Both the position numbers and the translations under genes were made by a program. Below the pieces are notes generated by a model. The model was given only the letters and a program-made list of their open reading frames with translations, searched no databases and was not told the origin of the DNA. Source: Nemertoderma westbladi (taxonomy: Eukaryota; Animalia; Xenacoelomorpha). From it: a DNA stretch of 64,000 nt. Positions within the stretch are counted from its first letter, which is position 1. Each line of letters opens with the position of its first letter. This document shows, piece after piece, positions 10,796 to 49,358 of this stretch. The stretch lies in NCBI GenBank assembly GCA_032718475.1, contig JAUCBJ010001800.1, positions 16,862-80,861 of the forward strand, read 5' to 3'.

Positions 10796-10814
10796 GCAAG
10801 GTTAACTGCGTCTG

Positions 10815-13722: not shown

Positions 13723-13726
<4 letters not shown>

Positions 13727-18814: not shown

Positions 18815-19071
18815 TTGCAGTAGGCAATAAAGCTGAAGTACCGGCAACCGGTACCCAGTAGGCCTGACTACCTAACCACCCGGACCGGTACCTAGAGCAG
18901 TACAGGTACAGCAGTATTATTCGATTTTGATTATTATATACCAGTAGGTCTTAATAATTAATCGGGGATGCCTGGTTTTTATTGGGATTTTACTTAGGCC
19001 TATTTCTGTCAGTTTTATTTATTTGTAGGCTAATATTGAGCAGAAGGCGTGTAAGCCTGCTCAGATTGTAC

Positions 19072-24131: not shown

Positions 24132-24428
24132 GTAGAGGAGCCCAGAAGGACGCAAGCGAAATTAGTAAACACACAAAAGGGTATACCACCACCCCCTGTA
24201 ACAATGTGTCAACCCGTTAGGTCTGAAGTATCTCATGCGCAAGGTGTGGAGCCTACACGCATCTATACTGCTAGCGAAGTAGAAACTCCTATAGTAAACC
24301 CTATTAAGGGTAATTATAGACCTGTTGATAGTGATATTCCCTATAGACCTGATCATAATCCGAGAAATTTATATACCGATAACTCGATATTAAATAACAC
24401 GATGGCCCAATAAAGTTTTACGCGTCAA

Positions 24429-27400: not shown

Positions 27401-27497
27401 AAAAAGAGGTGGATTTCGATTAACTAAATTCACCAGCAACTCCCGTGAGTTTCTGGAGTCGATGATCGAGATCGAGGAGCAAAAGACCTGGATCTAA
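24429..27497 (+). pseudogene. pol: Element A gag core (DUF1759-like), 3 Cys/His knuckles, aspartic protease, RT (ends in a frameshift)
   Basis: KFNG...W..F, CALCDGTHRLNMC / CYNCLRQGHQRRTC / CAKCGAKHHILLH, ALLDSGSTGTF, RVVFDGS, SDIEGMFLQV, IYMDDN. Confidence 0.9.
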
Positions 27498-27643
27498 TAA
27501 AAGATGATCTCCCAGAAACTAAGACCCTTGGTTTGAAATGGGACACCGAAAGAGATATCCTGTTTTTCCAACTAAAACAGCGAGATAATCCAGTTCGGAC
27601 TAAACGGATTTGTTGAAGTATCCTGAGCACTTATTTTGATCCA

Positions 27644-28657
27644 TTGGGATTTATTAGCCCAGTTATATTGATTGCTCGGAGTTTAGTACAACAAATGTGG
27701 CTTGAAAACCACTCATGGGACGATCCACTTAAGGGAGAGTTGTTAAAGAAGTGGATGAAATGGGAAGATTCTCTACCAGCCATCGAGAACTTTATAATTT
27801 CCCGTTCATATTTTGGTCATGTTCTCCCTACGTATTCCTATCAACTCCATGTGTTTGGAGACGCCAGCGATATGGGAATAGGTATAGTAGCCTACCTAAG
27901 GGTGGAAACTCCGGACGGAATCAAAGTCGCCTTGGTTACTTCTAAGGCATTGATAAACAATAAGTTGAAAGTTCCTCGAGCGGAGTTAAAAGCGGCTCTA
28001 TATGCTACAGCCATCAGCCGGAATGTAACAGAACAGATCGACTATCCACCAGAGAAAACTGTCTATTGGACCGACGCTTTACTCGTGTTGGAGTATATAA
28101 CCAATGAAGTCTGTCAGTTCAGCGTCTTCGTTACCAACAGAGTAGCCATTATACTCAGTCGCACAACGATGGATCAATGGAGACATTGCCCCAGAACGAT
28201 TAATCCAGCAGACATTGCCTCCAGGGGAGCAACTCCACAAGAACTGGTAGACACTCCAGACTGGTTAGGTGGACCCGACTTCCTCTACAAAGAAGAAGAA
28301 GAATGGCCTCCTCATCTTACTACCACAGAGATTAGACAGGCCAAGGGAGCGGAGAAAGTCAAACCTAAAACTCGGGCGAGTAAATCGAAGTTATTCAAAC
28401 CTATGGTAGATCTGTCTGTACTACATACTTCCGGAGACGACGCTTTGGATCAGAAACCCACAGCCACAAATAAACTTGTTGTGGAAATCCGTGAGAAGGA
28501 TTGGAAATCTGGAATACCAGACGTCTCGCAAGGACTCTCACCTCTTCTGCAGAGAGCGATACATCACTACAGTTCCTGGAATCGACTCTGTAAGGCCGTT
28601 ACATATTTAAAGAGATGTTTTCACCATCACTACTCCGGGATGAAGGCCAAAAGGTGA
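27644..28657 (+). pseudogene. pol: Element A RNase H (Pao peptidase A17 region)
   Basis: FDPLGFISP upstream, LHVFGDAS, PRAEL.AA, YWTD, WRHCP..INPADIASRG. Confidence 0.9.
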
Positions 28658-28676
28658 TACCACTCCAATAACATCA

Positions 28677-30206
28677 GTGCAGATCCATGTTATTAAAGAT
28701 CTTCCCAAATATAAGATACCCGACAAGTTTCTGAAGGAGAAGATCAGTTATCAGGAGCATGAAGAAACCAACAAGCAGATGCTGAGACTCCTGCAATGCT
28801 ATGAAGATTCCGATAAGTATTTCCAGTTGTTGAGAAATCCACAGATGCGCTTAAGGGATCGTTTCTCTAGCACAATGATAGATGGGTTGATACGTGTTGG
28901 AGGAAGATTAACGAATGCTCCATTATCCTTTGACACTAAGTTCCCCATACTCATTAGAAATCTTGAAATACAAGTCAAGATGATTGTAGATGTTCACAGC
29001 AAACTTTATCATGCTGGTAGGGAACGAGTTCTTAGCGAAATTCGAACTCGCTATTATTTTTATAAACCCCATAGAGCTCTGAACCAAGTTCTTAGGAACT
29101 GCATACCCTGTAGGAAAGCATTCAGTAGGCCTTTAACACAGCGAGAGGCAGAATTACCTAGGGAACGAGTAAGCTTCTATGAACCACCCTTTACTAATAC
29201 CGGTGTGGATTTATTTGGCCCTATTGAAGTATATCGTGCTAGGACTATTGTCAAGAGATGGTGTGTAATCTTTGTTTGTATGACTTGTAGAGCTATCCAT
29301 CTCGATATGGTGAACGATTTATCGACCAACAGCTTCCTATTAAGCTTACGACGACAGATCGCTCGCTTTGGCACTAGTAACACGATGAGATCTGATAAGG
29401 GAACTAACTTCATTGGTGCCAACAATGAAATCAAAGCTTACGTCAAAGATTGGAACCAAAGACAGGTGGACGATCAGCTACGAGTAACAGCGTCTAGCTG
29501 GACCTTCAACGCCGCCGACGCCCCTTGGTGGGGAGGAAGTTGGGAGAGATTAATAAGAAGTGTGAAGACAGCATTTCACTTTATAGTGCCTTGCCGCGCG
29601 TATCTCACCGACGAACTTTTGCGGACGTTAATGGAGGAAATCGCCGCCTATCTCAACGAGAGACCGCTTATGCCAGTCTCATCGAGTCCCGATTCCCTGG
29701 AAGCGCTAACACCCGCGCACTTCCTACTGAAGAAACCTGTAGCCATGCTACCACAATCGGAAATCACAGACGGAGACGAATACTGCCGGCAAACTTGGCA
29801 ACTCATGCAGTTGTTATCCCGTCGTTTCGCTGATCATTTCGAAAAACATTATCTGCCCACGCTACAACTTCGAACTAAGTGGTTTGCGCAGCAAGAAAAC
29901 GTCAGCGCTGGAGACATGGTTCTTATTGTGGATGTAGATCTTCCACGTAAGCGGTGGCAGACAGGTCGTATCATCGAGACTCACATCTCGGATGACGGTT
30001 TGGTGCGATCGGTAGAACTCGTCGTCATGCGACGTAACTTCAAGAAACCGGGAATTGTCTTCGAAACGCAGCAGCTCAATCGCCCAGTTGGTCGCTTATG
30101 TTTACTGGAAAGAGACAGAGAACTCTCCGGAAACTATGGGAGGCAAGATACTCTTCCCACGACCACCTCCCTAATCCAACAAACATATAGGGACTCCCCA
30201 GCTTAG
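28677..30206 (+). pseudogene. pol: Element A integrase plus DUF5641-like C-terminus
   Basis: RVGGRL, H..HAG...C..C, GVDLFGP, SDKGTNF, GGSWERLI, LTPAHFL, DGLVRSV. Confidence 0.9.
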
Positions 30207-30744
30207 TAGCATATGGAGTGGGTGTGTGACCATATTATTTTATATTCTTATTATTTTATATTTATGTATGTATTATTATGTAATTTTATTATAATCGTTT
30301 TATTTAATTTTATTTAGTAGCATGTTATTTTAGCGATTATTTAGTAGATTAGTGCAATATGTTCGCGTTTATTACGTAATTACTTATATTATATATTTAG
30401 TGCGAATGCAAGAAATAATTATTTTCTCTTTCCTTACTGCCCGTATTACATTACGAATACGTAACTACAGTAAGATGAAATGTCCGTACTTATTAAAGTA
30501 CAATAAAGCCACTACTATATTCAAGTATTATTGGTAGGCAGAGTATTAGGAATGCAAAGTTCAGATCCTCGTGTCTCGGCTAAACCAAGCTCTGGGTAGA
30601 CCTTGGAAACGACTTGCCTCTTCACACTGACATTGCTTCGTGCGATATTGCTCTCATACCGTATATTAAATAATACATATAGTAGCGTGATGTCCCTTTA
30701 ACAGTAGCGTATAACGCAAAATAAATCTGTTAAACCCTTTGACC

Positions 30745-31015
30745 ATCTGCAATTCTAGTCGATTAAGATATCGCGGCACCCACCGATATACTTGAAAGAC
30801 AAAATTCTAGAATCAGTGGTTAACGTCCCCAGACAACTGGAATAAACTGGTGCCCATCCTAAATATTAATTATTAATATTTACAAAATCTGTCAAAATTT
30901 AGATCCTTTAAAATTCTAGTCGATTAAGATATCGTAGCACTTACCGATACTCTTAAAAAGACAAATTCCTAGAATCTAGGATCCCAGTCCCCAGACACGT
31001 TCTGGAATAAAATTA
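30745..31015 (+). repeat. ~160-bp direct duplication in the pol-ORF3 spacer of A
   Basis: AATTCTAGTCGATTAAGATATCG…GACAAA…CTAGAATC…TCCCCAGACA…CTGGAATAAA occurs at about 30751 and 30912. Confidence 0.8.
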
Positions 31016-31847
31016 CGTTTATTTAACATTAAATAATAAAATTTACGGGAATAAATTTAAATTCATATATTTCAATGAATTTAATAAATTGTCATTTTAT
31101 ACAATTTATAACATTCCCAAAATTCCATTAATTAATAGATCATGGGAGCGGAGATTCACTCTATTAAGTGTATTGGTGTGCGAGAATCTCCAATATATAG
31201 TCAATAGCCGATAAAATTCATAAAATCATGTATAAAGAGAAATATTGACAATTAAAGAATTACTATTAAATAGCATCCCAGATCTGTATGCATGAGAATT
31301 ACCCTAATTCTACCGCTAGCTTTCCATAATGTCACCATGGCAACAACCACGCTAGAATTAGAAGTGAGTTAAAAGAACAATAGAAGGCTTGCCCCACTGA
31401 ATAGCATAGGGAATAAATAGCGCACTGCTAGTATCCAAAGATACATAATAAATAAAGTGACATTCTGGAAGGTACTTGACTAACGGACAAATGACCCGAA
31501 TGTGTGATAGAATGTGTACCATTTGTGACAGTTACGTGGAATTTGTGCGTTTGTAGGTGAATGTTACTACTAAGTTGTGTTTACAGTAGTGAGTCGCAAT
31601 TGTGAAAGTAACGCTAACTCTCCAGTAAGAACCTGAAGTACATCTAAGCCTTTGGGACGGACAGTGGAGTGACTTGTGCCAGTTATTGTTGTCGTTGTGT
31701 AGCTACATCGTTGGCGAAAGCACAGCGACGACGGTACATCGGCGCTGAGGATCTTGCACTGTCCGGGGGCAAAAGAGGGGTAGGCAGCGACGCCCGCTAG
31801 CCTAAATATAAACTCATTATAATATTGATAATCTCATATAGCAGATA

Positions 31848-33369
31848 TGACTAAGTTGATAGAAGATGATCTTGGTATCAGGGAGCGATATACTCTAAGT
31901 TTACAAACGTTTGTTGATAGCTTGATACGCGGCGACGCTGGTCCAACTACTACGGAGGACGATGGTCGTTATATCTAAGCGCCAATGTCCCGGGAGCAAC
32001 TTGCGCGTGGGTTGGACTGTAGAAAATTCACCGCTCGCTGTGCGCGTCGTAAATGGTACGTATATGGACTTCTTAACTACTGGTCATCCTATCGACCTAC
32101 ACGATACGAACGATATAGACACCAAAAGGGAAATGGTTTTATTTAAATATCATACCCAGCGGAAGCGGAACGATAAACTGAGACTCGAACACGAAAATTC
32201 TATTCGAAACCGACTCGAAAGTGCAGATGTTGAAGAGCCGGATAAACGCAGCGACTTCACCAAATACCTGGAATTCTTGAGAGAAACCTATTTCGATATT
32301 ACCAGTCAACAGAATCTAGAAACTCGATATCCTCAAGGTATACATCATGACCGCATGGTAGAACTCAAACGGCTCTATTCCACTATGATGTATCTTACCG
32401 CCGATCGACCGCTACCTGTTGTACCGGATAGCTTCGAACAGATGGAGGAATATTGTAAAACTGGAGAACGATCACCCACGTTTCCCCTACAAGACGTGCG
32501 TCTTTAGTATTATTGCAATGAATGCCCAAGACCCAACCAACAAACGAAAAGACATAAACATCCGCGGAGACGTTGCTTTAAACACGGTTTTACTCGCTAT
32601 ATTTACGGGAGTTTCGAGCGAAACTTGTTCGATGTATCACCTACGCTCGTTCGACTCGGACGATCCTTAAATAAACCAATGATCAGAGTTTCGGAATACT
32701 CGATCAGACCTCCTCATTCCCTAGTGAGACCTCAGACTCTTGATCCTATTAGTATGACGGATCCTCCCGAGCTGTACTCACTGCTCAAAGATCTAGTGTT
32801 ACCTGAACAATTAGTCGGTGGCACCCCGGTTGTGGGCTTCCTAGATATTAGCCCATCCTACCTAGCCGGATTGGGACGCGGACATTTAATATCGCCGTTT
32901 AACCCTTACCATCGTCCCGGCTTAACACGATATAACCTGTCACCAAAGTGGCGGAGAGCATTGTACCAAATGAGTTAGACGCTATTCTACAAAGATCAGA
33001 AAAGGAACTTATGCTTGTTCAGATAAACGTAAATTGCACTAGCAAGTCCAAGCGGTAAACAAAGTAACTATATCTCAGTTCGATCGGGAAATCCAGAATC
33101 TCTAAGAAGTTATCGAACTTGGACGACCCTATTCTCTGCGAGAGTTTTTGGATGAACGTATCCAGCTACGAGGAGGAAAATCAGCTCGAGGAGAAGCATA
33201 TCGAAACGGCGGATACCCCGACCATAATCCTACACCTTCTGATGCAATCATATTGCACCCTTCACCCAGGATTTATAGCCCTCCTAGTAAAGTGGCTCGC
33301 CCCAAAGAGAAAAGGACTCTTGCTAGCCTCAAAAAACTGCGTAAACGCCGTCCTCGTAAGAAAGACTAA
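31848..33369 (+). pseudogene. Element A ORF3 (disrupted), homologous to the N-terminal domain of element B ORF3
   Basis: 31962-32507 and 32625-32978 are in the same frame across a TAG. ELKRLYSTMMYLTADRPLPVV..F..M..Y + YYCNEC…RCFKH aligns with B ORF3. Basic tail KKLRKRRPRKKD. Confidence 0.65.
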
Positions 33370-33449
33370 CTGTTTAGAGTAACTTTATATTTTAGAAACT
33401 GTGATTTGTTATATTTTATAGACTTAATAATCCCATTTTCTGGGAGCGG

Positions 33450-34615
33450 TGTAAAGGCTTTTGCGTAATTAGCTGGTTATTTTCCCCTTAAAGTACTCTG
33501 TAGTTGGTTTAACCAGCATAAAAGGCCGTGTCCTTACTGTATTGTTGTTTTAGAGGACATAAAAGCCATTTCTTCCGTATGTGTACTTTAGCAGACATGA
33601 TTAGCAATTCTATGACGCAATAAGCCGGATCCTCTTGAAACAGTGTAGATACCATGACGACGGCTAACAGCTGATATTGCCACGTAGAACATCTCTTTGT
33701 TCTTTGTTCTCTCTTTGTTCGGTCGACCAATCAGAGCGTTTTTTGCCTCTGTGTTGGAGATGGTGTATAGAAACTAGGGAAGGGAATCAGTATGTGATTT
33801 TTCCACAGCCTACAACACCGGCGTGGAACCTCCGTGTTTCAGTCTTTAGTCTTACATTAGTAGGCTTAATTATAGAATGTATATCCGTTATCAATGCAAT
33901 GCTTACTGATCATATCAAACTCAGTCACTCATAATCATTCATACCTTAACATTACTGCTTTTACTGTCGGTTATTCATTATATTTGTTGATGGAACATTA
34001 TATTCGGAATACTGATAAACAATCAGACACCCCAATCTTCTTGATATACTAAAGGTTAGAGAGACCGGATACATATAACGATTGCGACTTACATTAAGTG
34101 GTTTGAAGTGAATCTAATGCTATTTTATAGGCCCTACACGTATTGTCTGTTGTTCTCCTTATATGTGACTAAAATTAGTGAAGGTCGGCAGATTGGTGTG
34201 CAGCATTGTGCAGCATTGTGTATGATTGTGATTGATAACGAAGCATCTCCTAAAGAATGCGCCATATACGTGAATCTATAGCCATCCCGTTGTGTCTGGT
34301 TTAAGTCATAACTCTGTTTATATATTTAAAGCGCCACGTCCTAAAGGAACTGTTAATATTTCCCGAAAGTGAATAATATTTGTCAGAGATTATATATATT
34401 AAGATCAGTCGAATAATACAGTAGGCCTATCCCGCAATACGATTAGGCTTCCGAATCCAGTCTCCCGGGTATATCCAGCGGGTGAATGATCGCGCATAGA
34501 CTGGTTTCGGCTAATGTAGTGTATCAAATATTTGTCGTAGGCTAAAGACTATCTATTATCTAGAAGACATCCTAATTTGGCAGGTTAAACTGCTAAAGGT
34601 CTGAAAGCGCGAACA
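33450..34615 (+). repeat. 3' LTR of element A (1166 bp), preceded by short PPT TGGGAGCGG
   Basis: Direct repeat of 17674-18793, followed by TSD AGATC. Confidence 0.95.
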
Positions 34616-34620
34616 AGATC

Positions 34621-36003
34621 CCTCTCCATCTCTGGCCCTCTCCTCTTCAATGACCTTGTGCTGTTGGAGTCAGCAGCATTTACCTTCCCTTTGGCCTTTT
34701 ATCTATTTACGGAATCATTACAAGTTCTTTCTTCGTGATATATCTTCTACCACATAATTGACATTGACTGTATGGCCACATCCACCTAGAACTAAACTGT
34801 GTGAAATTTATCCAAGGTTATAGTAGATGAGTGCACTCAACAAGGCGAAACAGACAGTCATTACCCCGCAAAAGCGAAGTTTGCTAGCTATACATATAGG
34901 GTTTGATGATTATCCTGGCAAGCATCTCAATAATACACTTGTGTTGGATAGTTTGATAAATAATGTAGAAAGAATTTCCAGACATTTATCAACTTCGCTT
35001 GAATTTACACCATGAAGTATTGGTTGGAATTGGTTAGAATTGCATTGGTTTGGAATAATGACAGAATGATACTGTGATGACCAGATAGATTTCTCCATTA
35101 TCTTTACTACATTACCTTTATAGACTGGTTCTTGGCTTCTTTGTGCAGGATATCTTGGATACTTTTACCATACTACAGTTGTAATTTATCTACTGTGGTT
35201 ATAGTCAGCTGATGCGATGCTCCGCCATGTGGCTTACCATTTACTTTCAGTCCTTTGGCCAGTAAATCCCGGAGACTCTTTCAACATCATTTTTGAGTAT
35301 GACCAATGTCATCTAGTTTCTCTAATCTATGACAGTCTGGTTTCTCATTTTATAAATGACTTCTCCATCTTCCCTCAGGTTCTTGTCAAATTCTAGCTTC
35401 TCATATCTGCAGTTATTTCCTGATAATCATCAAATCTGTCACATACACTATACGTAGGTATCCAAAACTATGCTATATGAGTCACCATCACAGATCATAG
35501 ATGTATAACTCAGCATATAATCCTCTTACCTAACTCCACATTTTCTTTGCTACTGCTTCAAGTATAATCTAGTAGACACTCTTATTGGTATTTCTCCATA
35601 CATTACAATTAGTATATTTTACATATGGACAATAATTACATTTAGAACAAATCGTGGAGCACATAGCATAATCTAAAACCTTTCCTGTATTTAACAGTAA
35701 TCACGAACCCAGCTCCATAGTTGGCAGTATGCCATCGTTTTGACCATGTAGCATCAAAAGTAACTTCAGTAGTGTCAGTAATAATTTTATTAGCATATCA
35801 ATGATCCCCTGGGCATTATCGTCGTAATGGCAATTTCTTTGCAACAACGGGGTGTATGGTACTAAGATGCTGCTGCTATACAGGTTTTGAAAATGAACAA
35901 GGACACCCCACGACTTCTTCATATGTTTTCAAGCCTTCTAACCCCACAGCAATCTCTAAACAGGCATTTGTATTGCGTTTGTTTATATATATCTACAGTG
36001 GCT
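34621..36003 (-). pseudogene. Degenerate Kolobok / Mutator-like transposase, second copy
   Basis: 34854-36003 matches 1-1135, with the same motifs and many shared stops. Confidence 0.7.
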
Positions 36004-36029: not shown

Positions 36030-36600
36030 CTTTGACTATTTAATCGATTTAATTCAAAATCGATATTAGTTAATTGTTTCATTTTATTGTTTACAGCTTC
36101 CTGCATGGCTTGCAGGTTTAGTGGGGACTCGTTTACTTTTTCCCTATAAAGGGAGTCCTCGTTCGCCCGGGCGACCTTTTTACTCGCCCCTGTGGGCCCC
36201 ATGTCCCCCACCGACTCAACTGAACCAATGGACACGGCCGGCCATAAGGCGGCATGGTGTCCATCACGAGAGTCGGTGATGGGGGATAAAATAGGGCCCA
36301 GACTTTGGGTGTTATGGGGATGGGCGAAGGGGGTACTAGATTGGCTGGATAAACACGAATATTATGATACCCCGGTCGTTGTTGGTATGATTTCTACATC
36401 TCTGCCCAAAGGCAGAGTGTATCCACAAGATGGGATCGCAACGTACTGAATGCGCTACTCAATAACAAACCAGCTCTGGGCATGAAGGACTTCATAAAAT
36501 ACCTCGATTATGAATCCTCGTTACTTATGATTACTCAACGCCGTGAACGCAACGCGGACCCGAAACTCGACAAAAATCCTACAACTAAACGTCGAGAGTG
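36030..36600 (+). pseudogene. Rearranged gag remnants of Bel/Pao element C
   Basis: 36335-36580 reads LDWLDKHEYYDTPVVVGMISTSLPKG/VSTRWDRNVL…MKDFIKYLDYE, matching A gag LDWLGKSHEY…STLPKGGVGTRWDKKVL…MADLMSFLDGE. 36030-36335 appears inverted. Confidence 0.6.
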
Positions 36601-36853
36601 AGTATCAATATCTGATATCAATATAATAATGCTTGCTATATTTGGGTCAGATATATATATACTGTATATATCAGTATATAGCCGGTACAACAATACCAGA
36701 ATACAGTCAGGCAGTTGGCACGGCATAAGCAGACACATTCAGTACACAGTCAGACAAAGGTAATAAGGTACCGGTAATACTGTTGTAGGCTATATCAGCC
36801 ATACTAAAATATAACCACCACCAAGATAATATATAATTAAGGTACTGTATAAC

Positions 36854-37148
36854 TTGGAACACATATGTGAAAATGCCCTACCCGACATTGAAAACTTCTG
36901 GGTACCCAGAGCTTATTTCCCTAACGCTCTGCCATCGCACACGTACCAATTACACGTGTTCGGTGACGCTAGTGACAAGGGCATTGGTATCATAGCCTAT
37001 TATAGGGCCACTACACCCCAAGACACTCGGGTGTCATCACTAGTACTGTAGCGTCCAAATCTTTGATAAAATGCAAAGATTTAACAGTGCCAAGAACTGA
37101 ACTAAAGGCCGCACTGTTTGCAACTACTGTTGCCAAAAATATCCCTGA
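36854..37148 (+). pseudogene. Element C RNase H fragment (interrupted by B)
   Basis: YQLHVFGDASDKGIGI…VPRTELKAALFA..VAKNIP continues as DETDFVISRTVLWTD at 55770. Confidence 0.85.
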
Positions 37149-39053
37149 TATAGAATTATATTCTCTAAATGCCGTGGATTTTCAAAATTTTTATTTTATT
37201 CGAATTAACTTTGTTAAAAGATTACATTAAGTCCTCATTTGTATTTGCTATATCTATTTGTACGATGATTAGTCAAGTGGTTCAGTAGCTCAGTCGGTAG
37301 AGCGTTGGAAATTATATGTAGTGTGTATTGAGTTCGAATCCTTATTATTTTTTGTGCAGAATTTCAACTCATTTAAATTGACCGCTACAAATTAATTGCA
37401 TTTGCTCGAAGTAAGATTAACCAATGAGACTGTAGTTATTAGATTGTAACCAATGTCGTACAAGTTATATATTTGCTGGACCAATAGCTATCTTTAAAAA
37501 CCTGTTAGAACTCATAGAACAATCGAGAATTTTCTCGATTGATTGCGGCACAAATTTGGTATAAAAGGTGCGATTTCGTTCATTAGTTATATATCTAAAT
37601 CAGATTATATCTAAATCTCAGTCTATATCTCAATCATTCGTGATTTAGATTATCTTTATCTATTAGTTTCTTGTTACGTTTATGTATATCTTCTGTAATA
37701 AAGTCAGAATTATCGCTAATCTGCCCTTTTTCTATCTGTTCTACTATGCTTCACCACGGTGAACTCAACTGAGGGACAGGATGGCTGGCTAAACATCGGG
37801 CCACAGCAATGAACGGGAACATCTAAGGAATGTAGACAGGAGACAACCCGCAATATCACTCTTAGTTATTCGCCCATCGCCTGAAAGGTTAGACAGCGTT
37901 CGATGCCTTGCTACCTAAGTATAAGACCAAAGATCGAAGGTAGAGGTAGTGACACGCTGTACGCCTAAAATTACATCTAGGGACTGTACTGTTTTAATTC
38001 GGGAAAAAACCGCAGTAGACCTTCATATTCCTACGGGGGGAGAGCAGGCAGAGATACTAGTACGCAGATAGGACGTAGGCACACCGGTACAAAGCATACA
38101 CATTGGTAGGGTGCAGCAAACTGTACGCCTAACTCTTGCTAAGTACAGGTGCGTCTGTGACTATTTGTAGTACAACGGTGTCCATTGCATTAGAACTTGT
38201 AGGCCAGGAGGGTTACTGTGTTTCACCTGAATTAGGATTGTACCGTTCAGGCGGTAGGGCAGTTTACGACTAGGCGCAAATAAATTGAGGCTAATTAGGG
38301 ATACTAACATCTACCGTGTCCCCGCCGACATCCTGATAGGAAGTTACCAAGCCCACCTAGGTAACCAAAATTCTAGATAGGACGCCAGGCTAGCTATTAG
38401 TAACCGTACGCCTACTGTAGTAAACTAACACATTTCTTCTTAGCATTAGGGACCTGGTAAATTAAAATTGCCGAATTCTGGGCGTAGCATTAACCTTATG
38501 CCCGAATTTGAGTCCTGGAAATACGCAAGAGGGGAAGGAGCCTTATCATTCGTGAGTATTGGACCTACAAGTTACAAAATTAGAATATTCGTAAAATGCA
38601 CACCGTACCCAGTAATTATATATATGAAGGAGCAAAACTGATCTTGACGGTTCAGAATTAACACACGCGAGTTAGAAATTATTTACACCTCAAAATATAT
38701 AAAATTAACTTTTGTCCGTACTGCACTTTGCCCGCTAGTTAGACATCTCCAGATCTCTGCACCTAGCTAGCGTCCTTTTCGCCCAACCATATAAATCACA
38801 CCGCGGCAAAGTATACGAGCCCCTTAGTCCGTCAGTGAGTCAGCCTGATTTTAGGATTCGCTGCGCGGGATTTTGTTTTATCGAAGTTTGTCCGTTCGTA
38901 GACTGTTTTCTGCCTCACCGGTTATAAGAGACCGATACTGCAATATATTCGCTTACTTGGAGTTTACTGTTTTGGTGATAAGGTCGGATTTATGATTTGA
39001 TTCACAAACTCTACAGTAGGATATTGCAGGTATTGTTACTGTCTCTTCATTTA
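37149..39053 (+). repeat. 5' LTR of element B (1905 bp; termini TA…TA)
   Basis: Direct repeat of 53854-55769. TATA-like TATAAAAG at 37560; AATAAA at about 37697 and 38279. Confidence 0.95.
37279..37353 (+). ncRNA. tRNA-like Pol III cassette (A box, B box, T-tract) inside the LTR of B; second copy at about 53985-54069
   Basis: TAGCTCAGTCGGTAGAGC (D-arm / A box), GAGTTCGAATCC (B box), then a T tract. Acceptor and anticodon stems do not pair well. Confidence 0.55.
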
Positions 39054-39072
39054 GTAGGAATATGAAGGTCTA
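39054..39072 (+). promoter_or_regulatory. Non-tRNA primer-binding site of B, perfectly complementary to LTR 38016-38034
   Basis: GTAGGAATATGAAGGTCTA is the exact reverse complement of TAGACCTTCATATTCCTAC (38016-38034 and 54732-54750). Confidence 0.8.
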
Positions 39073-39633
39073 AAGTTATTTGAAAATTTTTGTATTTTGA
39101 GGTAAAATTTATATTTGATTAGCTAAGTGCTAATTTTTTGAAATAAAATTTGATTTGAACCGCGTGTAAAATATTTTGCAATTGAATACCGGTGTTTAAA
39201 AGGGTTTAAATACCATATTGTACCGGTACAAAATTTTCGTAAAAGTAAAACCTAACTCTTTTGTTTTTCAGGATTCAGAACTCATTTCTAGACTGTAACG
39301 AGAGCAAGACCGTGTTTAGCAAGTTTGGGAGATAGATAACCCAACAACTTTGGTTGGGAAAATCGCACTTCGTCCGCAACGCTGGAAACGGAAAGGTTCA
39401 CGTCCGGTTTGTATCTGGGAATCTGTTTTTCTGGAGAATTATTGGAGTGGGTGAGTTTGAAAAGTTGCATAAATAAGTTAGGCATTACCGTATTAGTTAA
39501 AATTATTGTGGGTTCCACTGTCTCAAGTATTTATGCATTCTGTACGATTTCTTTGTTCATTGCTGAATTAGTCCGTATTATTGTATTTAATTTACATTTT
39601 GATAACGCATATCGTTATCCGATTTATTTGTTA

Positions 39634-39757
39634 TAAAATTGGCCGCTAGGCTAATTTTATTATATACTTATTCCGTGACATTTATTTGCTGTAAAATTGG
39701 CCGTTTAGGCTAATTTTATCCATCTGCTATAAAATCGGCCGGTAGGCTAATTTTATA
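39634..39757. repeat. Three palindromic hairpins AAAATTGGCC-NNN(N)-AGGCTAATTTT in the leader of B
   Basis: Copies at about 39634, 39693 and 39731. Confidence 0.7.
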
Positions 39758-39842
39758 TGACTGTAATTAGTACCGTTTTGATATAAATACGGTAAATTTG
39801 ATACTTTGACACTCACATTTTACTTGACTTACAACTACCGAA

Positions 39843-42800
39843 ATGAGTGACAAACAAGACTATACGAAGAATACACCTACCGACTATGACTCATGTGACG
39901 CGGATAAGTCAGCAGCGGAAGAACTACAAGGGAAGACTTGTGAGCCTACCGAACCTACACCGTGTGCGTCACCAGTACATCCAACGGGAGTACCGGATGC
40001 CGTAGTACGAGGCGACGGCAGGACTGAGGATTTCCTAACGGTCCCGCAACCTAGATACAGGGAAACGGAGATGGTAAGTTCAGTAGGAAGCACAGAAAGT
40101 GTGGTTAGAAGCGTCGGAGGCTACATGGCGCATATTACTAGGAGTATTGGAGAAGGCCAACGCGTATTAGACGAGTTGACCGCTCCGATGTCTCGATTCG
40201 AGTTCTACACCCTCCAGGTTAGAGTACAAAGTAGAGTACATAAGTACGTAGATAATCTAATTGGTCTACAAGATCTAGCTAGACAGAGACAGGATGTGGA
40301 TACTCAACTTAGAATCCTCGAGAAACTAATGATCGCTAGAGAGAAACTGATTCAGTTTAAGTCGACGATTAGGCAGATACAACAGGAACAAGCGGACCAG
40401 TTGTTAGGTGAGTCAGTTTCGGACGAATTATTGCAGCCCGAGGAAGAACAGGAACTGTACCGACTGGATGGACAATTGAAACATCTGACGGACCACTTAC
40501 GTATGTGCGGTGAAGACGTCGGCGATTTGGAAACCGTGCCGGAATATACGAGGGAAACTTCACCCGTACAAATCGAATCGGCACCGGGAATACTGGACCA
40601 ATCGTTAGTGAGTATTGGCGAGGTAAGTATAGTGACGTCAGAAATTTCCAGACAGCAACAACAGCACTATAGACAACAACGGGAAATTGAGGAACAAACT
40701 CAACTGTTGACGGTACAAGCGGCGGTAGAAGAAGAAAAACTACGCGTTGCAAATGTTGCAAGAATCTCTCATCTGCAAGAACAAGCCGAGTTGGAAGCAG
40801 CTGAGATGGAAAGGTTGGAGCTAGAAATAGCACAGCGAACAGCGGCAGCTGAGTTAGCGCAACAAGCGGCAGCAGCTGAGTTAGAACGACGAGCGGCAGC
40901 AGCTGAGTTAGAACGACGAGCAGCAGCAGCGGAACTAGAGCGACGAGCAGCGGAGTTGGAAGAACACAAGCGAGTTTCGGAAGTAAGAGCTGAGATGAAA
41001 AAACGGCAAATAAAGGCTCAATCAGCTATACGACAAGCGGAGTTCGAGGCGCAACAACAACAGACGGAACAACGCGAGAAAGAAGTTAAACTTCATTTCG
41101 AACTCGAGAAGAAGGCGAGAGAATTAGCCAACGCGAAGGAAGATCTGGATCTACAAGCCCGCGATCGATCGATGAGATCTCGTGACGGACATGATTTGGA
41201 CCAGATAGAGGTAAGGCACCGCCAAATTCAGGAACGAATGAAGGAAGGAAGTGTAGGGGCACCTGGGCGAGAAAGACAATTAGTTAAAGACTTATGTCAA
41301 AGATTCCCTCAAGTAACTCCTATGTTTGCACCAGTTACGACTAAGGAACCTGTTTCGATTGCTGGTAGTAGTAATATTTCTCCTATCCATGGTGCGACGG
41401 AACACAGGTTTGTTATTCCGGACAAGTTTACACCGCCAAGAGCAACGTCATCGCCTATTCTGAAAGTCAAGGTAAGTAACCCACCGATTATAGATCGTAG
41501 TAGTTTGTTGACCAGACCTGCACTGCTGACGACTAAACAGGTGAGTCCACCTTTGACACCAAAACCCGTTACGCACTACACGTACCCAATGACGTTTAGG
41601 CCTACAAGGCCTTTAGATTCAAACGCTGTCATTCGACCACCGTTTAATCAGTTTACATCGCAATCTACAACTTCGAGGAAGACTTGTGAGCCTACCAAAC
41701 AACGGAGAACAGTGGATACGCGACCGTTTAATCAGTTTACATCGCAATCTACAACTTCGAGGAAGACTTGTGAGCCTACCGAACAACGGAGAACAGTGGA
41801 TACGCGACCGTTTAATCAGTTTACATCGCAATCTACAACTTCGAGGAAGACTTGTGAGCCTACCGAACAACGGAGAACAGTGGATGATGTTCCGAAACGG
41901 AATGTTAGAATTCGAACGACACAACGGACGCGAGCACGTCGACCAACATATCCAGGTGACAGTAGTACTTCAAGCGAGTCGGATTACCCGGAACGCGAGG
42001 TATTTAGAACAGGAGCGGCCGACGAATATAAACGTGAGCGTTCAGATAACTCCTTTATCGATAATCCTCCACACAATACACCAACACAGAAAGCGTTACA
42101 ACCAACAGACGCGATTAGTACGCAACAATTCGCCGATCTAATGCGACCAGTTGTAGACAAGTTGGCCCAGATAGAAGAACGTTTAGAAGAAACTCAAACT
42201 GATAGTTCGCGAGGTAACGAACACTCTAGACACCCGAAGCAGCAAAGAAAACAACCCTCGAGAAACACCTCGTATCAAGGAAAAGCGCCAAGACGAGAGA
42301 ACATCAACTCGATTGCCAACCAAGGACGCGAAACTTTGAACGTGGCCGAGGAGATAGCAAAATTTGCAGCGAGACAAGGACTACCGGTGCAACAACCACT
42401 GAAGTTTTCCGGTAACTCGAAACATTGGCACACCTTTGAGGACTACATCGAAACACAAATAGCAGCGTGCGCCTTTACATCAAGGGAAAAATTCAACTAC
42501 CTGCTACAAACGCTGACGGGAGAACCGAAACGTTTAGCGGAGACCTTTGTCGGTGTACCAGACGCCTTCGAACTAGCGTACGATCGCTTAACTTCGATTT
42601 ACGGAGGCACCGTAAGCATGGCTAAGTCAGTCATAGAAGAACTCTGTAAGGGGGGGGCTATAACAAAACCCGTTGACTTACTGAAATTAGCTGACGAGAT
42701 TAAGAACGCCATTACTACACTACGCTCGATTGGACAACTTGACTACGCGAACACTCCGACAGTCCTATTGAAAATAATAGGAAGATTACACCATCGACTT

Positions 42801-42860
42801 CGTCGGGAGTGGCGAAAGATAGAATATCAGCGAGAAGAGAGGAGAAGAGCGGATTCTTGA
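39843..42860 (+). CDS. gag: Element B gag (coiled coil plus DUF1759-like core), ends at a frameshift
   Basis: PLKFSGNSKHWHTF…EKFNYLLQTLTGEPK. Contains AAAELERR repeats and an 84-bp x3 repeat at 41635-41885. Confidence 0.85.
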   Translation: MSDKQDYTKNTPTDYDSCDADKSAAEELQGKTCEPTEPTPCASPVHPTGVPDAVVRGDGRTEDFLTVPQPRYRETEMVSSVGSTESVVRSVGGYMAHITRSIGEGQRVLDELTAPMSRFEFYTLQVRVQSRVHKYVDNLIGLQDLARQRQDVDTQLRILEKLMIAREKLIQFKSTIRQIQQEQADQLLGESVSDELLQPEEEQELYRLDGQLKHLTDHLRMCGEDVGDLETVPEYTRETSPVQIESAPGILDQSLVSIGEVSIVTSEISRQQQQHYRQQREIEEQTQLLTVQAAVEEEKLRVANVARISHLQEQAELEAAEMERLELEIAQRTAAAELAQQAAAAELERRAAAAELERRAAAAELERRAAELEEHKRVSEVRAEMKKRQIKAQSAIRQAEFEAQQQQTEQREKEVKLHFELEKKARELANAKEDLDLQARDRSMRSRDGHDLDQIEVRHRQIQERMKEGSVGAPGRERQLVKDLCQRFPQVTPMFAPVTTKEPVSIAGSSNISPIHGATEHRFVIPDKFTPPRATSSPILKVKVSNPPIIDRSSLLTRPALLTTKQVSPPLTPKPVTHYTYPMTFRPTRPLDSNAVIRPPFNQFTSQSTTSRKTCEPTKQRRTVDTRPFNQFTSQSTTSRKTCEPTEQRRTVDTRPFNQFTSQSTTSRKTCEPTEQRRTVDDVPKRNVRIRTTQRTRARRPTYPGDSSTSSESDYPEREVFRTGAADEYKRERSDNSFIDNPPHNTPTQKALQPTDAISTQQFADLMRPVVDKLAQIEERLEETQTDSSRGNEHSRHPKQQRKQPSRNTSYQGKAPRRENINSIANQGRETLNVAEEIAKFAARQGLPVQQPLKFSGNSKHWHTFEDYIETQIAACAFTSREKFNYLLQTLTGEPKRLAETFVGVPDAFELAYDRLTSIYGGTVSMAKSVIEELCKGGAITKPVDLLKLADEIKNAITTLRSIGQLDYANTPTVLLKIIGRLHHRLRREWRKIEYQREERRRADS

Positions 42861-44632
42861 AGTTGGAAGACGTCTACTTACTGATATCCAGAGAGGCAGT
42901 AGTCGAGACGCGTTCGAACTACACGGACCACCATATTGTGGCGGAAGGAATAACCTTACCATCCTCCAACAGACAAAAACCACCGATGACATCCACAAAG
43001 ACGGTTACCTACGCAACATCGACCGACACCCGACAATTTTCGGACAGTAATAAGGTATCCGCACCAATTGGAACCAAACAGATCCGACAGCAACTGAGCA
43101 CAGACTTTAGCGGTTGCCAATATTGCGAACGGCTAGGTTAATGACATACTAGCCATAAACTGAGAGGTTTTCGACTATTCCGCGAATTGAACTCGGAGGA
43201 ACGACGACTGCAAATACGGCCATTGGACTCTTGTTGGCGGTGTACGCTACATGGACATGTCCGTAAAGACTGCCCAAATACAGACACCTGTCCTTCCTGT
43301 GGACGCAACCATGGCGGTTTGCTCAACACAGACAGTCATACGCCGACAAAACGCTTCACCAGGGAACACCCGGAAGCGGCAGCAAGATGCAACACAGCAT
43401 ATAAGGGTCGAGAGTCAAAAACAACACCGACTTTCGTGACATACATTAGAGATTGCTTCTCGGAACAATCAGGATCGTCGGATGAAGAGTCGGAAGACGA
43501 AGACGTTTACTTTGATACTGGAGACGAACAACCATCGATTGCGCTTCTGACGCCTGATCAACTAAAGGGGTTTAGTATAATTCCTGTCAAGATTACTGGC
43601 ACCAAAGGGAGCAAAAGGATCTACGCTATCCTGGATTCAGCCTCATCTCATAGCTACGTGGATGAGAAAGTAGCTGATGTTGTGACGGATCTCCGACAAG
43701 GTAAGAACGTCAGTTACACCGTAAGTAGTATGCATGGACAACGTGCAATACCAGTGACACGAGTTAAGTTGAACTTAGACACTCTTCTTCCGAAATCACA
43801 ACATAGCGAAAAGGAGAGGTCTTTGTTACCCTTTAAAGATTTAACCGTTGCGGCCACAAAGGACTTTAGTAACCTACTAGGTCCTGTCCCAGAACAATCC
43901 TTGGAGGACCGTAAGTACTTCAGACACCTTGGTGTACCTGAATGTCCTGTCAACTATAGGTCGGTAGCAATGCTGATCGGGACAGATCAATTCAACCTAC
44001 ATCAAGTGTGGGAAACCAGACCATCGGCAGTCGTAGCGGGAAACGCATACGCCTGTAGAACGCCGATAGGGTGGTATACTCGAGCGCCTGTGCGCACACT
44101 GGATATAAGTGACGAGGAAGACGATATACAAAGTACATGTAGTTTATTAACTACAACTTCGACTCATTCCTTTTCACACGACGTAGACTATACTACACTA
44201 CATTCGACAAAACATGACACGACGTGTGTAGTGAGTATGATAAGTCACAAGGAGCAGCTAATCCACCAGGTGAGTTTAGAACTTGGGAAGAAGACGAGTC
44301 AGCCAGAGATTCCATCGACGACAGATGATAACGCCGGAAGGCTTGCGAGTCTACCTCAACCAATAACCTCAACAATGCCCGTCGATATCGATGATGACGC
44401 GTTAAGAAATCATCAAGTGGAACAAGCTGCACTGGACAAAGAATTAACGGAGAAGACTATCAGGTGGTTAGAACAAGATACAGCCGAACCTGGTAGCTAT
44501 GAACCATGTATGTCGGAACAAGAGAAACAATCTTTGAAGATCATGGAAGATACTATCCGCCAGACGAAAGACGGACATTATGAGGTAGGGGTGCTATGCC
44601 GTAACCAACGTCCTAAACTTATAAATAACTAG
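42809..44632 (+). pseudogene. pol: Element B gag knuckles plus aspartic protease (broken by a stop or frameshift)
   Basis: CQYCERLG*, CWRCTLHGHVRKDC, CPSCGRNHGGLL, AILDSASSHSY, LIGTD. Confidence 0.8.
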
Positions 44633-44706
44633 CCTTAAGACGTTTACACTCAATACGACAACGTCTATTAAAGGACGAGAAAGCCCATCTGCAGTATAAT
44701 ACTCAG

Positions 44707-47700
44707 ATGGAGACGTATTTAACGAAGGGATACGCTATCAGAATAACTAACCCAGAGATTGTGACTGACCAGACATACTACTTGCCACATCACTACGTGA
44801 GACACCCCGACAAACCAGACAAAGTACATGTAGTCAATGACTGCGCGGCGCTGTTTGAGGGAATGTCCCTCAATAGTGAGTTAATGGATGGACCAAACAT
44901 GAATAATTATCTCATGGGGGTGATTATGCGCTTCCGTCAGCGTCAAGTAGCCTTTACTTGTGACGTCGAAGCTATGTTTCACCAAGTGCGAGCGTTAGAG
45001 CGAGACAGAGACAGTTTTAGGTTCCTCTGGTACCCGGAAGGAGACTTAAGTCTACCACCGGCGACTTACCAAATGCAAGTTCGCGTTTTCGGTGCCAGGG
45101 ACAGCCCAAACTGTACGATGTACGCCCTAAAGCAAGCCGCTAGGGATCAGAAACATATATATGACCCAGAGATAATCAAGATCGTAGAACGCGACTTTTA
45201 TGTAGATGACGGATTACAGAGTTATGACACAGTAGAACGTGCTATAACAGTAGCACATCAATTACGGGACTGCTTAGCGGGCGGAGGTTTTAACCTCACC
45301 AAATTCGCCTCAAACAGTGCCGAATTGGTAGACTCATTCGGAACGACTGAGCGTGGAGGTGGTGACATTGACCTAGAGTTCGAACTACTACCGACGACCA
45401 AGGTGTTGGGGCTCTTTTGGGACCCAAACACGGACAACTTTCGAGTGAAGGTGAGACTGGACACTCAAGAAAACACTCTGACAAAGAGATCCTGCTTGTC
45501 AAAATTGAGTCGATTGTTCGATCCATTAGGTTTCATCAGCCCAATAATACTGCAAGCCAGAATTTATATGCGCAGTATTTGGAAGGATGGACTGACATGG
45601 GACGAGCCGATCTCATCAGAACAAGTGGACTTATGGAAAACCTGGGAGGCAGAATTATCTTCACTAGAGGATTATTCCATACCCAGAGTGTACTTTCCAT
45701 TACAAACGACATTTCCTGACAATTTGGAATTACATTGTTTTTCCGATGCCAGTGACAACGGCTTTGGTGTGGCAGCGTATTTACGCAGACAAGTAGACTC
45801 AGACGAGTTTGATGTTTCGCTCATTACTTCTAAGGCTAAAACCATGCCTACTAAGTATATGACGACACCATGCGCTGAGCTACAAGCCGCAACCCTGTCA
45901 ACCACAATCGTGAACCTTATACAGACGGAACTACAGTCAAGTTTACAGATATTTTATTGGACTGACGCGACGTTGGTTTTATTTTACATAAACAACGACA
46001 CACTTGAATTCAAGACATTCGTAGCTAACCGTCGCGCAGAAATTCTAGACCGTTCAATAAAGGAAGATTGGCGACATTGTCCCGGACCACAAAACCCAGC
46101 CGATATTGCGTCACGAGGAATGATGCCCGAGGAATTCTGTAAACCGGAGAACAAAGAATTTTGGCAGCACGGACCACAATTCTTGCAAAGATCAACACTA
46201 CATTGGCCGCCACTATACGACAACAAGTCTAACACTATCCCTAAAGACGCCGAAATTAAAAAACCAAAGAAAGGGAAAGCAAAGAAAAGGACGGCGGCTA
46301 AACTCAAGAAAAAACCAAAGGCGAAATGGAAAGATATAACTTCAAAGGTCAAGAACGGAAGACTTGCGAGCCTTTCTACACCAGACATATCGCCAGATGA
46401 TCAACCAGACACGTTACCAGACGTATCGCCAGACGCGTTACTAGACGGTCAACCAGACGTTTTGCCAGACATGTCACTAGATATTTCGCCGGATGTTCCG
46501 CGAAACATTTTACCAGACATGTCACAAAATGTTCTACCAGACACTAGTAACATATTGACAAATAGTAAAGCCGCAGTTTCTCTATTGGAGCGGCCTTCTA
46601 TTGACAAACAACCAGACGCGTTACTAGACGGTCAACCAGACGTTTTGCCAGACACGTCACTAGATATTTCACCAGATGTTCCGCGAAACATTTTACCAGA
46701 CATGTCACAAAATGTTCTACCAGACACTAGTAACATATTGACAAATAGTAAAGCCGCAGTTTCCCTATTGGAGCGGCCTTGTATTGACAAACTACCAAAT
46801 TTGACACACTTGAGCAACCATAAGCACAGTGAAACCTCATGTATTACAGATGTGGGTAGTACCTACGCTAATGTAAATACAGGTGTTACTTTGCGCTCAA
46901 GAGACATACCAAACTTGCAACCTATGGTGAGAACCGGGATTAATATCGGCAGAAAATTAAGTTTACCGAAACCCAGTGACCCCATAGAGTTCAAACCACC
47001 ATTAACGATCGACTTACAAAGTACCGACAATCAAGGTAAGAAGACAAAGAAGGACAAATTACTTGTAGACCCGGATGGATCAACAGTCAACAAGGGAATA
47101 CCTACCGGCGCACCCATGGGCCCTTCTAGTAATTCAAAACCTTCCAAATTCTCCATTGACTTACCTGATGACGTCACAAATACTTACGTCGACCGTATTG
47201 TAAACTTAACAGATTCTTGGACAAACGCTTGCCGAAAATTAGCGTGGATTGTACGTTTTGTACAATACGTTAAAGGCAAACGAGACTTTACACGTCGACT
47301 TACATTGACTGAGATTGACAGGTGTGAAATTAAATTAATTCGCCATTACCAACTGCGATATTTTGCGCGCGAATTCACATCTATAAGTCAAGGTCAACCA
47401 ATCAAGTCGTCACCAATATTGAGTTGGAGTCCGATAATTTATAATGGCTTAATTTGTCATAAATCTCGGCTTCAAAACATTGACTTTAACACAAACTTTA
47501 GATACCCAATAATAATACCGCAGCATCACGAATTACAACGTGCAATGATACTGGACGCACATTTACATCTGAAACACGCTGGAAGACACCACTGTCTTTC
47601 CTACTTACGTACAAGATTTGTATTAATTAGACCCAGTAAAGCGTTAAGTTTAGTGACACGTACGTGTATTATTTGTAAAAAGGTACATTCTAGAATAGGT

Positions 47701-48696
47701 ACCCAAGAAATGAGTGAACTTCCACAAGCACGACTTCAAGCATTCAGACCACCTTTTACAGAGACTGGAATTGATTGCTTTGGTCCCATACATACGAAAC
47801 GTGGACGTATACTAGTAAAACGCTGGGGACTGATTTTCACATGTATGTCCAGTAGGGCAGTTCATATTGAACGTGTGATGGATCTTTCCACCAACGCGTT
47901 TATACTAGCATTGCGGCGATTTATCGCTAGACGCGGACTAGTGAAATGCTTGTACTCAGACCAAGGGACAAACTTTGTTGGTGCTCGAAATGAGATTGCT
48001 AGAGCCTTTAAGAAATTAGATCATGATCAAATCTCAAACGAACTACGTCCTTACAAGATTGTTTGGAAGTTTAATCCTCCAGATAGTCCATGGAGAGGCG
48101 GAGTCTGGGAGAGATTGATTAGATCTATAAAAACAGCCATGGCAAAGGTCATTCCAGTAAACCACATCTTGACAGACGACCAACTGACAACACTGTTTGT
48201 TGAAATCGAGGCAATACTAAATACTAGACCAATAGTATTAGTACCCGATGACAAACAATCCCAGTTTGCTTTAACACCAGCACACCTGCTTATGCAGGCA
48301 CCGACTACATTAACGCCTATTTCTTTTCCAATGGAAGGCGATAGCTACGGTAGAAAAGCGTGGAAAATCACGCAACTACTAGCTAACAAATTCTGGGAAA
48401 TATGGCAAAACCATTATTTGCCCTCTATTTCTGCCAGAACAACATGGTACAATAACACCCGCGCATTAAAGCCGGGAGATCACGTGCTGTTAGCAGAAGT
48501 GAATCTAAAAAGACGCTTCTGGATAACAGGTGTAATTTTAGACACACATCCATCTATGGATGGAGTAACAAGAACTGTGACGGTACGGACAATTGACGGT
48601 CGTACAGTAGACAGACCGACTCAACGTCTCGTACTTCTTGAAGAGTCTCGAAACGAGTCTGGAGACTACAAATCTCCAACAAATGTTAGTAAATAA
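44707..48696 (+). CDS. pol: Element B RT-RNase H-integrase
   Basis: CDVEAMFHQV, FYVDDG, FDPLGFISP, LHCFSDAS, NPADIASRG, GIDCFGP, SDQGTNF, GGVWERLI. A 198-bp x2 duplication lies in the RH-IN linker (about 46410-46790). Confidence 0.92.
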   Translation: METYLTKGYAIRITNPEIVTDQTYYLPHHYVRHPDKPDKVHVVNDCAALFEGMSLNSELMDGPNMNNYLMGVIMRFRQRQVAFTCDVEAMFHQVRALERDRDSFRFLWYPEGDLSLPPATYQMQVRVFGARDSPNCTMYALKQAARDQKHIYDPEIIKIVERDFYVDDGLQSYDTVERAITVAHQLRDCLAGGGFNLTKFASNSAELVDSFGTTERGGGDIDLEFELLPTTKVLGLFWDPNTDNFRVKVRLDTQENTLTKRSCLSKLSRLFDPLGFISPIILQARIYMRSIWKDGLTWDEPISSEQVDLWKTWEAELSSLEDYSIPRVYFPLQTTFPDNLELHCFSDASDNGFGVAAYLRRQVDSDEFDVSLITSKAKTMPTKYMTTPCAELQAATLSTTIVNLIQTELQSSLQIFYWTDATLVLFYINNDTLEFKTFVANRRAEILDRSIKEDWRHCPGPQNPADIASRGMMPEEFCKPENKEFWQHGPQFLQRSTLHWPPLYDNKSNTIPKDAEIKKPKKGKAKKRTAAKLKKKPKAKWKDITSKVKNGRLASLSTPDISPDDQPDTLPDVSPDALLDGQPDVLPDMSLDISPDVPRNILPDMSQNVLPDTSNILTNSKAAVSLLERPSIDKQPDALLDGQPDVLPDTSLDISPDVPRNILPDMSQNVLPDTSNILTNSKAAVSLLERPCIDKLPNLTHLSNHKHSETSCITDVGSTYANVNTGVTLRSRDIPNLQPMVRTGINIGRKLSLPKPSDPIEFKPPLTIDLQSTDNQGKKTKKDKLLVDPDGSTVNKGIPTGAPMGPSSNSKPSKFSIDLPDDVTNTYVDRIVNLTDSWTNACRKLAWIVRFVQYVKGKRDFTRRLTLTEIDRCEIKLIRHYQLRYFAREFTSISQGQPIKSSPILSWSPIIYNGLICHKSRLQNIDFNTNFRYPIIIPQHHELQRAMILDAHLHLKHAGRHHCLSYLRTRFVLIRPSKALSLVTRTCIICKKVHSRIGTQEMSELPQARLQAFRPPFTETGIDCFGPIHTKRGRILVKRWGLIFTCMSSRAVHIERVMDLSTNAFILALRRFIARRGLVKCLYSDQGTNFVGARNEIARAFKKLDHDQISNELRPYKIVWKFNPPDSPWRGGVWERLIRSIKTAMAKVIPVNHILTDDQLTTLFVEIEAILNTRPIVLVPDDKQSQFALTPAHLLMQAPTTLTPISFPMEGDSYGRKAWKITQLLANKFWEIWQNHYLPSISARTTWYNNTRALKPGDHVLLAEVNLKRRFWITGVILDTHPSMDGVTRTVTVRTIDGRTVDRPTQRLVLLEESRNESGDYKSPTNVSK

Positions 48697-49358
48697 TTAG
48701 GAGTTTACAAATAGATTTCCACGTACCTGTACACTGTAGTAAGGACAGCGGTAGAATTCCATTGTCTTTATATGTGAACATTGAGGGTAGTACCCTTATG
48801 TGTCACATAGGAGCGGGATTTGTAGGTATAAGAAATGGAATTCTACTTGGAACTCACAATATTGAGACATTTTCGAAATTTTAGACAATCCATTTGGATT
48901 TGAAAATTTTTTAAAATTTTCTCCAGTGAATAGATTTCAGGGTACAGTCGGGTGGAACTTAAAATTTGAGAAACAAGAGAGGAAGACTTGCGAGCCTTTC
49001 TTAAAAATTTTAATTAAATTTTACACGGTCTTGTTTCAATAAGTTACGTCAAAATAGACTTCCCTATATTTATTACTAATTCTTGACTGCTTATTTTCTG
49101 ATAATAGTTTGGGATCAAAAAGTGAGTATTTTAGACTCACAGCCAGTTTAGCCCAAATTCGTTTTTATTTTCGGCAAAAAATTTTAGATAAGAAGCAGCG
49201 TGTCATTAAAGAAACCCTAGATCTTAGGCTATGGGTAGGAGGTTAGAGCGTTGTCGAGCCAAAAGGGCAGACGAAAACTCTCACATCTCCTCACAACTAA
49301 CTACAAACTCTGTTGTATTCCCTCTAGTAGTAATGATTATGTAACTACACCTCTAATT

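Follow-up and report, generated by a model that had tools for sequence, protein, structure and literature searches.

According to the ICTV, replication of Bel/Pao retrotransposons is tRNA-primed and poorly understood, and Belpaoviridae have an 18-nt PBS for tRNA-Arg or tRNA-Gly, lengths of 4.2-10 kb, with LTRs that measure 0.2-1.2 kb (PMC8742986). For Tf1, the accessible part of PMC7175516 describes that the RNA pairs with the PBS through its 11 initial bases and that RNase H cuts after base 11. Self-priming has also been proposed for Tj1, Tcn1 and the Copia elements TAR, Houba and Osr-1 (accessible parts of PMC4600332 and PMC6317226), and the fungal Copia element GalEa, which has no tRNA PBS, carries a conserved hairpin (an inverted complement) at the PBS position (accessible part of PMC5445492). 

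The window (the whole stretch of DNA analysed, 64 kb) contains a Bel/Pao retrotransposon, hereafter element B, with the following features:
37149-55769: element B, 18,621 bp
37144-37148 and 55770-55774, + strand: 5' and 3' TSD, CCTGA
37149-39053, + strand: 5' LTR, 1905 bp, with TA...TA ends
53854-55769, + strand: 3' LTR, 1916 bp
38016-38034, + strand: anti-PBS (predicted primer segment) in the 5' LTR
54732-54750, + strand: identical copy of the anti-PBS in the 3' LTR
39054-39072, + strand: PBS position, 19 nt exactly complementary to the anti-PBS, without TGG
39828-42860, + strand: gag-region ORF with PF03564 (DUF1759), followed by a frame break before the next ORF
43145-44632, + strand: zinc knuckle/protease region ORF, the frame shifting again near 44630
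44629-48696, + strand: RT-RNase H-integrase ORF with PF05380, PF17921 and PF18701
49239-53051, + strand: extra ORF of 1270 aa with three CCHC-like knuckles
53847-53853, + strand: PPT end GGAGCGG, common to element A (see below)

The two LTRs of B are 99.06% identical (blastn), being eight substitutions and two indels apart, and their termini are TA...TA rather than TG...CA despite a young insertion with a clean 5-bp TSD. The flanks of B are two halves of a single Bel/Pao RNase H region, and the CCTGA TSD is supported by the fact that they join into one interrupted region. The decayed Bel/Pao to which they belong (RNase H-integrase part, 36869-37148 and 55770-57598) hosts both the nested B and a Gypsy element. 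The coding frames of this copy of B are broken near 42860-43145 and near 44630. For the extra ORF, there was no Pfam or PDB match and no match to an env family, the only lead being an Atlas score of 0.83; it shows weak similarity to an extra ORF in element A (32340-32615). The closest RT-RNase H relatives of B are only about 43% identical, and PF05380 was present in 120 of 120 homologs among those listed. The family of B is represented by thousands of variant contigs in sequencing runs of one organism (from several studies), and a second organism carries a related copy.

By its domains, B has a Pao-type Gag and Pol in the order PR-RT-RH-IN, and it also has the paired LTRs, TSD and PPT of the group; the gag-PR-RT-RH-IN order, the Pao-specific Pfam families and the PPT are shared with Belpaoviridae (PMC8742986). 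B differs from them in its size (18,621 bp, with LTRs of 1905 and 1916 bp, which exceeds the descriptive range), TA...TA ends and extra ORF, and in the absence of a tRNA site: a self-complement without TGG stands in the place of the 18-nt tRNA-Arg/Gly PBS. We assigned B to Bel/Pao on account of its proteins, and its departure at the PBS is the finding reported here.

The 19 nt that follow the 5' LTR were described in the preliminary account as the perfect reverse complement of a segment present in both LTRs, with pairing that stops at the TSD-defined LTR boundary and without TGG, and sequence comparison bore out each of these points. The pairing starts at the first base past the 5' LTR (offset 0), and the anti-PBS lies 868 nt into the LTR, about 1 kb away from the PBS. 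A 19-nt match is expected by chance at 9e-8 (LTR length x 7 offsets), it was reached by 0 of 100 shuffled PBS sequences, and the pair 39054-39072/38016-38034 is the sole inverted match longer than 11 nt within 37149-39400. The predicted duplex has a stability of -33.3 kcal/mol with about 19 bp. On the other side, variation of PBS and anti-PBS within the family of B was not seen among the 40 differences listed, none of which falls in either 19-mer, and the broken frames of this copy also count against the reading given next.

The reading that we prefer, with a probability of about 0.62, is that B primes minus-strand synthesis in cis from its own LTR RNA, in the manner of Tf1, instead of from a tRNA. 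In the unspliced genomic RNA, 38016-38034 would fold onto 39054-39072, and a cut directly 3' of 38034, for which the RNase H of B is the probable enzyme by analogy with Tf1, would leave a 3'-OH adjoining the end of the LTR. RT would copy 39053 back to 38035, with subsequent transfer to the 3' repeat. Plus-strand synthesis would copy the primer and thereby rewrite the PBS from the LTR, which would keep PBS and anti-PBS in exact complementarity. For most relatives, this duplex would be complete only once an LTR intron has been spliced, whereas in B and in element A it would form from one piece.

B resembles Tf1 and Tf2 of S. pombe, Tj1 and Tf1/sushi elements, which, in the parts of the sources available, likewise have no tRNA site and a PBS complementary to their own LTR RNA. 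Unlike in Tf1/sushi, the Pol of B is Pao-type and not of the Ty3/gypsy chromovirus type; in comparison with the Tf1 group and the Copia cases, the match is 19 nt long and starts after 868 nt of a 1.9-kb LTR, and its status as the first bases of the RNA is putative; a further difference is that the match is completed by splicing in most relatives. We consider B a Bel/Pao by its proteins that likely works like Tf1 without belonging to the Tf1 group. The hairpin of GalEa is a local one that follows the LTR downstream, and an LTR complement was not found by the authors (accessible part of PMC5445492), whereas in B the complement is LTR sequence. A further Bel/Pao comparison can be made within the nematodes. 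There, Cer7 of C. elegans has reportedly been proposed to encode its own primer, by means of a tRNA-like module outside the LTR and a tRNA-type PBS; the primer segment of B is, in contrast, LTR sequence without tRNA likeness.

The start, end and splicing of the RNA of B bear directly on this reading, and the relevant features are:
37278-37343 (+ strand) and 53984-54060: tRNA/SINE-like piece in U3, the copy in the 5' LTR being 10 nt shorter
37421-37565, + strand: three CCAAT and TATAAAA, a predicted upstream Pol II promoter (function inferred) with a start near 37590
37888-39271, + strand: candidate GT..AG intron, which would excise anti-PBS and PBS and give a translation-only mRNA
38012-38016, + strand: GCAGT, Inr-like; its internal CAG makes a poor acceptor, with pyrimidines at 2 of 12 positions and place 78 among the 83 scored
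38279-38284, + strand: AATAAA downstream of the anti-PBS, with a 3' counterpart at 54995

The U3 piece contains motifs resembling an A-box and a B-box, and ARAGORN found 0 tRNA genes within the 64-kb window. The GCAGT directly before the match and the AATAAA at 38279, both mentioned in the preliminary description, are present; to these we add a second AATAAA at 37697, upstream of the anti-PBS, and the predicted promoter with three CCAAT and a TATA, which lies about 450 nt upstream of GCAGT and is the stronger of the two. Strand transfer in the cis model would need polyadenylation downstream of the anti-PBS (AATAAA at 38279/54995); the model would fail if the AATAAA at 37697 is used, so that only the signal at 38279 fits it. 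As to whether the complement forms the first bases of the transcript, as in Tf1, the Inr-like site and the predicted fold speak for it, the probability of the duplex being 0.99 with a start at 38014 and 0.13 with a start at 37590, the latter value coming from 1.5-kb RNA folds, which are unreliable. The upstream promoter speaks for an upstream start, as does a joint 37887->39272 at GT..AG in one contig of run X4, which has a short side of 22 letters and comes from a run whose type, like that of run X5, was guessed, contig depth not being counted as evidence. The acceptor at 39272 ranks first among the 83 scored. If this joint reflects RNA, some transcripts of B begin upstream of 37887 and have primer segment and PBS spliced out. 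Two promoters in B, or a long primer, are possible, and a transcript start at 38014 is unproven. That the CAG of B is in use as an acceptor, with an exon that pairs, was considered as well, and rejected on the basis of its rank (78 of 83) and the absence of a donor with a PBS-matching exon end.

The window holds a second giant Bel/Pao, element A, and a small Gypsy element:
17674-34615: element A, 16.9 kb, with TSD AGATC and TG...CA ends
17674-18793, + strand: 5' LTR of A
33450-34615: 3' LTR of A
18095-18115, + strand: anti-PBS of A, with 12 nt exact at 18104-18115 (also at 33880-33891), a 2x2 loop and seven further pairs
18794-18814, + strand: PBS position of A, offset 0, without TGG
57599-61627: Gypsy element with 211-bp LTRs and an ordinary TGG PBS at 57811, serving as a control within the window

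The RTs of A and B are 44% identical, and A pairs with its own LTR in the same register as B, with letters unrelated to those of B. The 12-nt match of A has a chance expectation of 1.6e-3, its duplex reaches -23.6 kcal/mol with about 19 bp, and the predicted probability of the duplex is 0.34-0.42; AATAAA is absent from the LTR of A.

The preliminary description proposed to examine relatives for the type of their PBS and for conserved complementarity. We collected 95 loci: 15 came from genome_contigs, and the others were the 80 best out of 457 in metagenome_contigs (scans of viral_contigs yielded no loci). The 3' end of the LTR was set by a repeat pair in 15 of the 95, most others being without a usable LTR pair; a repeat in L013 with no RT inside, a palindromic one in L140 and overlaps of contig ends were discarded as LTR pairs. 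A TGG PBS was found in 0 of the 15, and self-pairing is kept across related families although the letters differ. What the preliminary description overlooked is that in most relatives the complement forms only across a splice junction: the short match in the LTR starts straight after a pyrimidine tract and YAG, and the following PBS bases equal the exon end before a strong upstream splice donor. A perfect match of 11-13 nt to the predicted exon junction was found in 12/15 (9/15 in a first pass, the rule having been relaxed after inspection to an offset of <=6 and a looser acceptor filter), each being reached by 0-1 of 500 shuffles. In these twelve, perfect pairing over 11-13 nt is obtained only if the LTR intron is removed at the predicted junction. 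As for the other three, L078 gives a match via its 5' LTR copy, L008 matches over 11 nt apart from one mismatch, and in L007, which has no intron, 11 nt match contiguously.

The commonest match length among the relatives is 11 nt, and the own LTR gave the best or tied-best score for the PBS in 14/14 rows. Between L003 and L004, which belong to one family (80% RT identity), matched changes are seen in exon end and PBS. The spliced duplex was more stable than the unspliced one in 11/11 cases, with 13-22 pairs in total and usually a second helix past a bulge. A form without such an intron was also encountered: L065, at 98% identity to L051, is missing precisely the 263 nt predicted there as a GT..AG intron, and is the one case in which a joined junction was recovered in another locus, among 17 predictions looked up. 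Among loci without an independently fixed LTR end, 18 of 25 had a junction match of 11-15 nt behind a motif like an LTR end, and seven (L016, L020, L025, L044, L048, L049 and L050) had no match of at least 11 nt in guessed ranges with uncertain LTRs. L136, L001 and L044 are three further cases, L044 with a contiguous match of 12 nt after the earlier non-match. Altogether, the 36 paired loci correspond to 22 families at 80% RT identity (25 at 90%, 13 at 70%). Where a TATA is present in the relatives, its distance to the donor is 36-224 nt, and hence the paired segment is not always formed by the first RNA bases. A second PBS-like copy in U5, which could pair with the spliced 5' end, was noticed in L051 (581-593) and L075 and is possibly a switch. 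Several bacterial MAG records (L001, L003, L004, L007-L009, L013, L015, L126-L142) contain a whole animal-type Bel/Pao, which probably indicates contamination with host DNA.

To these data we added 17 further regions of two genomes, which gave five TGG-type Bel/Pao loci (L126-L129 and L132); they are about 30% identical to B, and their best self-complement is 4-7 nt. Self-pairing in the register of the LTR end is thus found in B, in A and in 22 families, and is absent from TGG-type Bel/Pao. The suggestion of the preliminary description that an LTR-derived RNA acts as primer gains strong comparative support from sequence in this way, whereas its placement of the RNA start at GCAGT has the fold for it and the promoter and the X4 joint against it. 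We regard priming by LTR-derived RNA as highly probable overall, whether it takes place in cis or in trans.

Supply of the primer in trans, in which a short LTR transcript would be trimmed and annealed to the PBS of uncut genomic RNA, appears unlikely to us, although it is the best of the alternatives. In the relatives, its source would be an RNA spliced and polyadenylated at the AATAAA of the LTR, and for B it may be a small RNA or part of the excised 37888-39271 intron. It would explain how the LTR intron is retained through replication in the relatives, and AATAAA or ATTAAA lies 8-104 nt beyond the acceptor in 11/12 junction matches. Moreover, the joined part of L065 terminates 10 nt past AATAAA. 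However, L065 can equally be read as a full transcript's 3' end after splicing, the trans primer in B is putative, and folding in cis is favourable with an RNA start near 38014.

The duplex could also be structural or regulatory (packaging, dimer formation or a translation switch), with another RNA as the true primer. Alternative folds do compete for both arms, and priming cannot be shown from sequence alone. We nevertheless hold this to be improbable, since the paired arm begins 0-6 nt past the LTR end in 12/12 junction matches, and directly at that end (offset 0) in A and B, which is the register that a primer requires; there is no TGG site at the PBS position, and eleven nt is the length of the Tf1 primer. 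It is very improbable that the present copy of B arose in a single event of mispriming or template switching, in a family whose PBS is normally different. The complete sequence was read for a single copy of B only, and four contigs of run X3 follow the PBS for 9 nt and diverge at 39062, possibly representing a subfamily with another PBS; against this, contigs of two DNA runs span the PBS bin, element A is independently alike, and so are the relatives, family after family. Least probable of all is priming by a fragment of a host tRNA or by some other RNA of the host, of which the LTR segment would be a captured copy: half-tRNA primers are known in Copia lineages (accessible part of PMC6317226) and a tRNA-like piece lies elsewhere in the U3 of B, but Rfam gave 0 matches at E<=5 in 36500-40000, and the PBS letters vary freely among families yet track their own LTR.

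Returning to priming in cis, B and A need no splicing, and their duplexes equal the spliced duplexes of the relatives; in neither is there a donor whose exon end matches an extension of the PBS. In the trees, all of them quick, with long branches and comprising fetched loci only, without named Bel/Pao references, B falls in a non-TGG RT-RH group apart from TGG-type Bel/Pao (SH-aLRT 94 and 100 in two trees), A and B are sisters in two trees (SH-aLRT 98 and 96) and stand at the base, without resolution, in a third. With TGG outgroups, A and B are placed inside the non-TGG group and outside its main clade of 19-20 rows (SH-aLRT 97 in both trees), though long branches may be pulling them to the base. 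Since spliced families surround L007 and L044 in the trees, there were probably two or more losses of the LTR intron, unless L044 is a spliced transcript. The contiguous primer of A and B may go back either to loss of an intron or to its ancestral absence. B may represent a contiguous, possibly early, form in a lineage that, judging from its sequences, otherwise apparently assembles its primer by splicing. As a tentative joint reading, a branch of marine-animal Bel/Pao may have swapped the tRNA for a self-made primer, of which B and A would keep the first stage (contiguous, with a tRNA-length 19-bp duplex), and the intron-split primer assembled by the spliceosome in 20-odd families would be derived from it; in B, splicing would have the inverse role of excising primer and PBS, so as to part mRNA from genome.

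If self-priming in this lineage is true, it would reach a third LTR superfamily, with at least 22 families, and assembly of the primer would fall to the host spliceosome in most of these, a connection that was not found in the literature searched. Among titles and abstract starts, with subscription journals, Repbase and supplements outside the search, no report of self-priming or splice-junction priming in Bel/Pao, or of such a group, was found. Self-priming of Bel/Pao is not described in the accessible parts of PMC3601003, PMC5445492, PMC4558846 and PMC8220671, and a look-up of terms in the accessible parts of the Sinbad paper (PMC554778) and the BEL/Pao survey (PMC3118150) retrieved no discussion of the PBS. 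Such priming would explain the many Bel/Pao without a recognisable PBS, would presumably free them from tRNA supply and from silencing by tRNA fragments, and would provide a sequence rule for annotating LTR ends and introns of Bel/Pao. B, with one 19-nt segment and a defined 3' end, would be the clearest single test case.

Several other features were observed in the window: a direct repeat of 1.15 kb (94.7%) at 1-1135 and 34854-36003, without LTR hallmarks; a 33-bp tandem array at 9742-10924; a foldback element at 13717-14560 with arms of about 200 bp; and an F-box ORF at 15032-16477.
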